Assembly: GCF_003334355.1 (NCBI RefSeq)
Contig: NZ_QOWP01000003.1
Direction: 5' to 3' (one strand)
DNA: 64,000 bases
DNA from: Escherichia coli
GTDB taxonomy: Bacteria > Pseudomonadota > Gammaproteobacteria > Enterobacterales > Enterobacteriaceae
Part shown: piece by piece, positions 1 to 40,930 of the stretch
Layout: each line of letters begins with the position of its first letter
How positions within the stretch are numbered: position 1 is the stretch's first letter
Made by a program: the position numbers and the translations under genes
Notes under the pieces: generated by a model
What the model was told of the DNA's origin: nothing
Databases searched by the model: none
Seen by the model: only the letters and a program-made list of their open reading frames with translations

Positions 1-519
1 AGTCAGGTATTACTACAAAGGCGTTTTGTGGAGTCCTGGCTATTTTGCCAGTAGCTGCGGAGGTGCGCCAATATCCGCCATCCGTCAATACATTGAACAA
101 CAGCAAACACCTGGTCAGGTGGAAAACCGCGCCGTATATCCCCGCCCTGAAGGACGGGGTTTTACGGCGCACCGGATAAACCAGGCCAAGCGTATGCTGG
201 TTGATCAAATAATATCCGCCAAGCGCAGCAATATTAATATTCACCTGCAATGGGTCGATATCTGGCTTAAAAATATTGTGTTTCTTCCCTTCATCCAATA
301 AGGATTCCATTAACTGCAAGTGCGCATGGTTAATTTCTAAGAGACGCTGTGATTTTGCATAATGCACACCTTTACTTTGATTTTCACTATGCACAATTTT
401 TAAAAACCAAGGATTAGCAATATAATAATCCCATGTAAAATCAATAATTTTCTCAATGGCTTTTTGTGGCTGGCTAACCTGCTGATTAACGAATACACCG
501 ATACCGACAGCGTAGAATA
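1..519 (-). pseudogene. ytfA: TetR-family regulator fragment, C-terminal ligand-binding domain only; in-frame stop at 520-522 on the upstream side, continues off the window start
   Basis: Hand translation of the minus strand gives about 170 aa of TetR C-domain-like sequence (…[26 protein letters not shown]…) with no HTH region and a TAA immediately upstream. Position next to yjfZ matches the K-12 ytfA pseudogene as I recall it. Confidence 0.4.
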
Positions 520-735
520 ATTACATACCGCACAACAAGAATGGTAAGGCGTGGAAGTCATTTTCTCCCCGGGTGCATCGTTATATCCATAATGAGCGAT
601 TTTTGATATTAATATCTTTCACCATCCGCTATTTTCACCACTTCAGAAAACAAACTTATTTTTATTAATATCAATTCTTTTTCTTTGAACATTCAGCTGC
701 GATATTTGTAAAAATATTAAACAGGTAACATTACA

Positions 736-1530
736 ATGACATTACCAACCACTATTTATTCATTTCCTGCATATTTATCTCGTTTTTCGTCCACCGACAA
801 ACCAGTAAAATTAAAATTTCATCAATACGCACGCGCTACATTACTTTCAAATCGTGGAAGAGATCATAATTGCGATGGCAGACGTACTGTTGAGATCCAC
901 AAACTAGATCTCTCAGACTGGCAAGCATTCAATAAGTTAGCGACGAGGTGTAATGCTTACGATGGAATAACAATGAATGGTGATAATTCTTTTGGATGGA
1001 ACCATGAAGCTACATTAGATAATATTCACGCCCAGAAATACAATAAAGCTTACACGGGTGCGAGGTTAACCGCAGAACTGAAATATTTATTGCAAGATGT
1101 CGAATCCTTCGAACCCAATAGTAAATACACAATACACGAAGTGGTTTTGGGACCTGGTTATGGTACTCCAGACTATACCGGCCAAACGATAGGATACGTT
1201 GTAACCCTTCCTGCCCAAATGCCTAATTGCTGGTCATCTGAACTACCAACAATCGATCTTTATATCGACCAACTTCGCACTGTTACAGGCGTTTCTAATG
1301 CCCTCGGATTCATCATTGCTGCATTGCTAAACGCGTATTCTGATTTACCCCATGATTTGAAAATTGGTCTGCGTTCCTTATCAAGTTCAGCAGCAATCTA
1401 CTCGGGTTTGGGTTTCGAGCGAGTGCCGCAGGACCGAGACATAAGGAGTGATCGTATGCATCTAACGCCAGCAAACCATCCTGACTTATGGACACAAGAG
1501 AATGGTGAATGGATCTACTTGCGAAACTAA
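736..1530 (+). CDS. yjfZ: DUF2686-family protein YjfZ (264 aa)
   Basis: 264 aa ORF, AT-rich, downstream of rplI as in K-12 synteny. Confidence 0.75.
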   Translation: MTLPTTIYSFPAYLSRFSSTDKPVKLKFHQYARATLLSNRGRDHNCDGRRTVEIHKLDLSDWQAFNKLATRCNAYDGITMNGDNSFGWNHEATLDNIHAQKYNKAYTGARLTAELKYLLQDVESFEPNSKYTIHEVVLGPGYGTPDYTGQTIGYVVTLPAQMPNCWSSELPTIDLYIDQLRTVTGVSNALGFIIAALLNAYSDLPHDLKIGLRSLSSSAAIYSGLGFERVPQDRDIRSDRMHLTPANHPDLWTQENGEWIYLRN

Positions 1531-1542
1531 TACCTGACGAAA

Positions 1543-1570
1543 AATAGAAAGCAAAACGCCGACCAATGGT
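1543..1570. terminator. Bidirectional intrinsic terminator between yjfZ and rplI
   Basis: aaaacgccgaccaatggtcggcgttttt: GC stem flanked by an A-run and a T-run, between two convergent genes. Confidence 0.7.
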
Positions 1571-1600
1571 CGGCGTTTTTACGTCTCGTTGAATAACGAA

Positions 1601-2644: not shown

Positions 2645-3058
<414 letters not shown>

Positions 3059-3366
3059 TTATTCAGCCTCCTGTCTGGGTCAGCCGAATCCCGGGGAGGC
3101 AAGGAACGTGTTAAAGGTCGGCTGAAAAATGACGCGTTATAGTACTTGTATGCCTCGCTAAACTCAAGGGCAGAGCCGAAATAAATCTCCCCTTTCGCAA
3201 TTAACCTCTAAACCGCTGATTTGGAGTTCATCACACTTCATCATGGTGTTTTTTCGAACAACTGCATCAGAAATGGTCACCATCAACTTCTTTATCATTG
3301 ATTAAAATTAAATCAGAAGATCATCACAGAGGAGAGCACACAAAGTCAGCCGTCGAGGAGGTATCT

Positions 3367-40621: not shown

Positions 40622-40697
<76 letters not shown>

Positions 40698-40854
40698 TTA
40701 ATCTTCGTCTTTCGAACCGCTACTGCCTTGGCTGCCTTCACTCACCTTAGTCACATACTTTTGTAAGTTCCCAAGGATTCGTTCAGTTGCCGCCTTGTCG
40801 CAATTCGAAATACTGCGATTGGGTGGTCTGTGCTTTGCAGCACTTTTCAAATTT

Positions 40855-40930
<76 letters not shown>

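Follow-up and report, generated by a model that had tools for sequence, protein, structure and literature searches.

Decay of the TetR-family gene ytfA at the yjfZ-ytfB locus of Escherichia coli, and the operon that it very probably controlled

At the start of the E. coli sequence analysed here (64 kb, called the window throughout), the minus strand carries a frame that stays open from position 520 to the window edge, over 173 codons. A preliminary description of this DNA took the frame for about 170 aa of a TetR C-terminal domain devoid of the DNA-binding helix-turn-helix (HTH), truncated at its N-terminus alone, and representing a decayed regulator, probably ytfA, whose ancestral target could not be named. 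How much of the frame is really TetR, by which events was the gene lost, and what did the regulator control when it was intact?

The family assignment and the lack of an HTH were both borne out. The window's own translation matched Pfam TetR_C_29 (E=1.4e-26) and no other Pfam domain, and an NCBIfam search of the remnant returned no family. By tblastn, residues 83-187 of an intact 215-aa regulator (P0006) matched window positions 469-155 with E=4e-64. Over the 296 bases retained, the remnant and its intact counterpart in ATCC 8739 (L007 13647-13942) were 99.7% identical at the nucleotide level, and intact 215-aa E. coli regulators showed 99-100% identity to the remnant in the same part. The domain match and the identity to intact regulators together establish descent from the TetR/AcrR family. 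Residues 1-82 of P0006, which include TetR_N (19-59), had no match in the whole 64-kb window by tblastn, and none of the three minus-strand frames of 523-735 contained an HTH-like sequence. The possibility that an HTH-encoding stretch lies in frame upstream and was overlooked through mis-framing, a caution raised in the preliminary description, was thereby answered.

The TetR-derived part is nevertheless much shorter than 170 aa. K-12 ytfA and all intact alleles show DNA homology to the remnant that begins at window position 470 and ends at 175. The ytfA remnant proper (176-470, minus strand) corresponds to codons 83-180 of the 215-aa TetR/AcrR regulator, that is 98 aa, and covers positions 1-98 of the 119-position TetR_C_29 model. 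The open frame is a mosaic in which these 98 TetR codons are preceded by 17 codons (520-471) antisense to a decayed piece of an SDR gene, and followed by 58 codons (175-2) antisense to the left end of IS609 and the 3' end of its tnpA; that the IS609 antisense reads through without a stop is chance. The frame is closed by a TAA on the minus strand at 523-521, upstream of the TetR part, as read from the sequence and the frame translation. A closing TAA had been correctly recognised, at a position one base off (520-522), as had the absence of any ATG between this stop and an internal Met. Taken at face value, the 173 open codons and a Pfam alignment reaching translation residue 127 would speak for a single contiguous TetR C-terminal ORF of 170 aa, truncated at the N-terminus only and with a target beyond recovery. 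We give this reading virtually no chance, as homology to every TetR allele stops at 175, window 1-175 is IS609, the true C-terminus lies beyond the insertion sequence, and the target can be deduced from intact alleles (see below). The contiguous ORF was ruled out by comparing the filled site with an empty one.

This comparison used E. coli K-12 MG1655, whose ytfA pseudogene (b4205) shares with the window the yjfZ-ytfB locus, the deletion junction, the truncation point and the SDR relic, in a collinear alignment with 98% nucleotide identity over window 175-735. The identification of the decayed regulator as ytfA therefore stands; ytfB itself lies beyond the window edge, and the position of the remnant between yjfZ and ytfB follows from how K-12 and a genome identical to the window are annotated. 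K-12 has no IS609 and keeps codons 83-215 as a 402-bp pseudogene, whereas the window keeps codons 83-180; in the relic region, K-12 is also 6 bases longer.

Alignment of the filled window site with the empty K-12 site, GGTTTAT(C)ACATCAG, placed the IS609 boundary at 175/174, with one ambiguous C and no target duplication. Bases 1-111 (plus strand) are the 3' end of tnpA, called from a profile match and from PGAP annotation. They encode the TnpA C-terminus (a 34-letter translation), whose last 31 residues match positions 96-126 of the 126 in NCBIfam NF033573 with E=2e-6, below the whole-protein cut-off as expected of a fragment, and PGAP annotates tnpA over the identical sequence, naming it IS609 family in some records. 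The left end of the element (112-175, minus strand), delimited by the site comparison and by DNA folding, contains a subterminal hairpin at 170-129 (-21.2 kcal/mol, z=-4.65). Its inner hairpin, with a TTCA loop on a similar stem, recurs at the other IS609 end in E. coli M1/5 (L001). A Y1 (HUH) TnpA, hairpins at both ends, no terminal inverted repeats and no target duplication are the marks of the IS200/IS605 family, and elements of the IS609/IS605 type share with the present one the Y1 TnpA C-terminus, a divergent tnpB (insQ), subterminal hairpins at both ends and this mode of insertion. Unlike intact elements, the copy looks defective in M1/5, and only its last 175 bases fall inside the window.

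E. coli M1/5 is identical to the window over bases 1-1600 and displays the far side of the insertion. Its PGAP order is ytfB, a 35-codon TetR C-terminal piece, a frameshifted insQ/tnpB, tnpA, the TetR middle piece and yjfZ, and the middle piece is labelled a pseudo-CDS "missing N-terminus and C-terminus". IS609 thus displaces the last 35 TetR codons by about 1.7 kb. The window does not contain the true C-terminus (HISMVSPQ...STAHE), which is located beyond the element, so the truncation is not confined to the N-terminus, contrary to what had been thought: the gene was cut on both sides. The M1/5 copy of IS609 (L001 4482-6112) has its insQ/tnpB annotated as frameshifted and an incomplete tnpA, yet the insertion is fixed in 1744 genomes; this copy fits an old, immobilised insertion.

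What was lost on the N-terminal side became apparent from alleles in which the regulator is whole. In ATCC 8739, the intact TetR/AcrR regulator WP_001299246 has an HTH, a start codon, a divergent operon and a palindrome in the shared promoter region, and the window lacks all four. This protein, P0006 and their Salmonella orthologues occupy the same place beside ytfB as the remnant does, with a 17-nt convergent overlap. Alignment to intact homologues had been proposed at the outset as the way to find the lesion, and it proved effective: when the window and K-12 were aligned with both parental segments of ATCC 8739 (blastn), a 546-bp deletion was found, with its junction at window 471-474. The missing segment, L007 13101-13646, comprises SDR codons 1-30, the 212-bp intergenic region and TetR codons 1-82, which correspond to helices 1-4, HTH included. 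The deletion fused TetR codon 83 to approximately codon 31 of the divergent SDR gene, and the parental sequences have a CCGCCAC microhomology at the junction. The SDR relic (475-570, plus strand) covers about codons 31-64; it is 81.6% identical at the nucleotide level to L007 12999-13100, 79-82% identical to all Escherichia SDR alleles tested, and SDR residues 21-64 match the window by tblastn with E=2e-5.

Further out, the 8.8 kb holding the other operon genes in ATCC 8739 (L007 4209-12998) is replaced by window 571-1547. The replacing segment begins with an AT-rich spacer (571-700), for which blastn at word size 7 and tblastx found no credible match in any operon locus, and continues with a yjfZ cassette (701-1541, plus strand). 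Homology to ATCC 8739 resumes at 1548, just before the rplI terminator hairpin (1553-1579, minus strand; terminator scan), which is the conserved far boundary of the replaced segment. We very strongly favour the view that window 176-470 is a dead ytfA fragment produced by three events. The 546-bp deletion would have come first, taking the SDR 5' end, the promoter/operator region and the N-terminal half of TetR. The remaining 8.8 kb of the operon would then have been lost, with about 1 kb, including the orphan yjfZ, taking its place. IS609 would finally have inserted after TetR codon 180, separating the last 35 codons. The order of the first two events is inferred. Viewed as a whole, ytfA here is a case of ordinary gene decay.

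A sister allele occurs in the cryptic lineage Escherichia sp. E1V33. It has the same junction, the same relic and the same AT-rich spacer without yjfZ, the rplI terminator being joined directly to the spacer; identity to the window is 85% over 471-698 and 88% over 698-175. Since the E1V33 allele (L013) otherwise matches and lacks only yjfZ, the cassette 701-1541, in which yjfZ is flanked by 35 bp on its 5' side and 11 bp on its 3' side, is separable from the rest, and its limits were set by this junction alignment. The cassette ends carry no target duplication or repeats, and insertion of yjfZ and its precise loss are for this reason both compatible with the two alleles. The SDR-like stretch and the spacer might alternatively be foreign DNA that arrived together with yjfZ in one replacement event, instead of a deletion followed by an insertion. 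The relic, at 79-82% identity to every Escherichia SDR allele tested, is far more diverged than the TetR part at 99.7%, and 571-700 is without detectable source in a region of low GC, as a foreign origin would lead one to expect. The relic is however collinear with the TetR piece and in the correct orientation, and E1V33 has the junction, relic and spacer with no yjfZ. Its divergence moreover agrees with vertical descent and neutral decay: about 18% separates it from every functional SDR allele tested and about 15% separates E. coli from E1V33, the latter falling within the range of dS for flanking core genes between the same two (fklB 0.16, ytfB 0.47). We consider a single replacement unlikely, and retain deletion followed by operon loss.

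Because the relic divergence of about 15% falls within the flanking-gene dS of 0.16-0.47, the sequence comparison suggests that the deletion is old. The TetR part has apparently had a different history. Between the K-12 remnant and an intact E. coli allele we counted 0 nonsynonymous and 3 synonymous differences, and between the K-12 and E1V33 remnants dN/dS was about 0.10, not about 1. These values fit a TetR part overwritten from intact alleles by recombination anchored in ytfB; recombination that keeps the remnant nearly identical to intact alleles would explain the low pairwise dN/dS. A broader scenario, in which the deletion predates the split of E. coli and E1V33 and has survived as a long-lived presence/absence polymorphism, with yjfZ inserted or born in the scar later and an HTH-less fragment perhaps persisting in IS-free or E1V33-type alleles, seems to us rather improbable as a whole.

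Allele frequencies were measured in 5426 complete E. coli genomes, which are not a random sample, with a threshold of 80% query coverage. A 651-bp probe running from the SDR 5' end across the intergenic region into the TetR N-terminus detected the operon with an intact TetR N-terminus in 3144 of the 5426 genomes (58%). The yjfZ/deletion allele was found in about 2226 (~41%). An IS609 junction at the ytfA site was present in 1745 genomes, and in 1744 of them together with the deletion junction: the insertion is restricted to the deletion allele, 78% of whose copies carry it. K-12 is one of the minority without the IS.

The preliminary description had called the neighbouring yjfZ uncharacterised and AT-rich, which was confirmed: its CDS (736-1530) encodes a full-length DUF2686 protein (PF10887, E=2.7e-153, model positions 17-285 of 285), and GC content over 601-800, where the spacer gives way to yjfZ, is 0.285. 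The YjfZ family consists only of E. coli-type sequences, in 5 near-identical protein clusters among 5.8 billion sequences. yjfZ has been proposed as a PCR marker for E. coli and Shigella as a whole (PMC11057252), but the locus studied here carries it in only about 2226 of the 5426 complete genomes; none of the "YjfZ" primer and probe sequences of that paper was found in the 64-kb window, though yjfZ is present there.

The ancestral target, which had been set down as beyond reach, can be deduced from intact alleles, carried by 58% of complete E. coli and by four other genera. P0006 is a complete regulator of 215 aa, with TetR_N at 19-59 and TetR_C_29 at 83-201 (protein search, Pfam), and its Salmonella orthologues are 83-86% identical. 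In ATCC 8739, the regulator is flanked by ytfB on one side and, on the other, by a divergent operon reaching as far as rplI. This operon has 8 genes: an SDR (annotated "3-ketoacyl-ACP reductase"), a TIM-barrel protein (annotated "sugar phosphate isomerase/epimerase"), an enoyl-CoA hydratase, a YdiF-like CoA-transferase, an FrdA/NadB-like flavoprotein, and the small, large and binding subunits of a TRAP transporter. Salmonella enterica, E. whittamii, E. albertii, one divergent E. coli, Klebsiella spallanzanii and Entomohabitans teleogrylli have the five enzyme genes and the regulator in the same synteny, next to ytfB. The transporter genes that follow the five enzyme genes vary: TRAP in E. coli, an MFS-type protein in Salmonella gene calls. 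Judged from gene order, ytfB / TetR / SDR-TIM-ECH-CoA-transferase-flavoprotein is the arrangement ancestral to enterobacteria. As intact alleles keep the regulator divergent to this conserved operon, the lost target of YtfA was very probably an uncharacterised operon for CoA-dependent acid catabolism, with its TRAP transporter.

Searches of NCBIfam and of PDB sequences gave only generic names with respect to the operon substrate. The matches were PRK12745 for the SDR, the uncharacterised TIM-barrel protein SMc04130 (3ju2), and the YdiF-like CoA-transferase 2ahu; the flavoprotein had no close solved relative in the PDB sequence search, and a literature search on six RefSeq accessions found nothing on the substrate. 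In Alphaproteobacteria, TetR homologues are 33-40% identical; of their loci, only L015 has TIM, SDR and CoA-transferase homologues nearby, a weak match of context. We also observed decay among the alleles scored as intact. The CoA-transferase gene of the ATCC 8739 operon is frameshifted (L007 9210-10750), and the TetR variants P0002, P0060 and P0063 have differing internal or C-terminal frameshifts, which suggests that selection on the pathway is relaxed in E. coli.

The layout of a regulator divergent to its operon, with a palindrome in the shared promoter region, is that of TetR/tetA, AcrR/acrAB, Bacillus FadR and KstR2. Similarity of the regulator to Bacillus-type FadR is weak (E=3e-12, far below the family cut-off), as it is to KstR2 structures (E=5e-5). 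Bacillus FadR and KstR2 sense acyl-CoA, and the ancestral operon of ytfA is likewise CoA-dependent. Unlike these regulators, the window copy cannot bind DNA.

In the shared promoter region of intact loci, the palindrome has the form GATCAACCA-TCTRGT-TGGTTG, with 8-nt arms and a 6-nt spacer, and the SDR start codon follows 68 bp downstream of it. It falls in the block GATCAACCATCT(G/A)GTTGGTTG, invariant in an intergenic alignment of 7 taxa in which the surrounding DNA varies. Each of 10 intact loci has exactly one copy of the palindrome, and none of the deleted loci L001, L002 and L013 has any. A search of the window with up to 3 mismatches gave 0 matches, so that no second operator copy is present. 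By analogy with known family members, the conserved palindrome is probably the operator of YtfA, the candidate sequence for P0006 being GATCAACCATCTGGTTGGTTG. If the intact protein works as TetR-family local repressors do, its dimer would bind the palindrome and be released by a metabolite of the pathway.

Could the fragment that remains in the window still do something? It has no HTH (Pfam TetR_N, PF00440), no intact ORF with a start codon, and no complete ligand-binding/dimerisation domain, 35 codons having been displaced by IS609. With no HTH, in-frame start, operator, target or C-terminal helices, it is regarded as non-functional. One might still imagine that an HTH-less ligand-binding/dimerisation fragment is expressed and retains a residual role, for instance as a ligand sink or a protein partner. 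E1V33 offers the best case, an ATG-initiated chimeric ORF of 166 aa that is in frame and has been called as a database protein (P0011). This ORF (L013 9898-10399) joins 33 new codons, antisense to the SDR relic, to TetR codons 84-215, an additional base at the junction bringing the two into frame. The window and K-12 differ there by 1 nt, which breaks the ATG frame so that it ends after 53 aa: the corresponding ORF (561-400) is antisense to the SDR relic and out of frame with TetR, while the TetR frame itself meets the stop at 523-521 with no ATG before its internal Met. The last 35 residues are also lost to IS609 in 78% of deletion alleles, including that of the window, and other alleles are frameshifted in different ways (P0002, P0060, P0063). 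The low pairwise dN/dS of the remnant, which could be read as a sign of constraint, is explained by its near-identity to intact alleles. As to expression, RpoD holoenzyme and H-NS bind in vitro to the yjfZ-ytfA spacer of K-12 (PMC3946193), and a preprint reports expression changes upon CRISPRi of ytfA; both would favour an expressed fragment. Our promoter scan gave as many hits as expected from shuffled sequence. Some transcription is possible, and the CRISPRi effects are possibly indirect, because ytfA and ytfB overlap convergently. Altogether we hold a residual role to be highly improbable, and the remnant is best described as a dead fragment.

The ytfA locus is itself already known, as the K-12 pseudogene b4205, as a PGAP pseudogene and as a gene of published variable presence: ytfA has been listed among TetR-family regulators that every E. 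fergusonii and E. albertii strain examined possesses but that occur in only part of the E. coli strains (PMC6790063). The present analysis adds that the ORF is a mosaic split by IS609, describes the SDR relic and the yjfZ-less sister allele, and identifies the lost operon and the deleted palindrome. These additions are routine comparative genomics, of little import for biology at large, and their value lies in correction and context. More than half of sequenced E. coli keep the operon, and strains such as ATCC 8739 and E. coli C are natural systems in which the ligand and the substrate could be sought.

Three other features were recorded elsewhere in the window. An RpsF leader (3038-3122, minus strand), upstream of rpsF-priB-rpsR-rplI, and a guanidine-II (mini-ykkC) riboswitch (56433-56479, minus strand) both scored above the Rfam gathering score and are ordinary. 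Two tRNA-Gly(GCC) genes lie at 40622-40930 (minus strand), separated by a 157-nt spacer (40698-40854); the K-12 MG1655 array has three genes (glyV, glyX and glyY) about 36 nt apart, and the window differs from it in both copy number and spacer.
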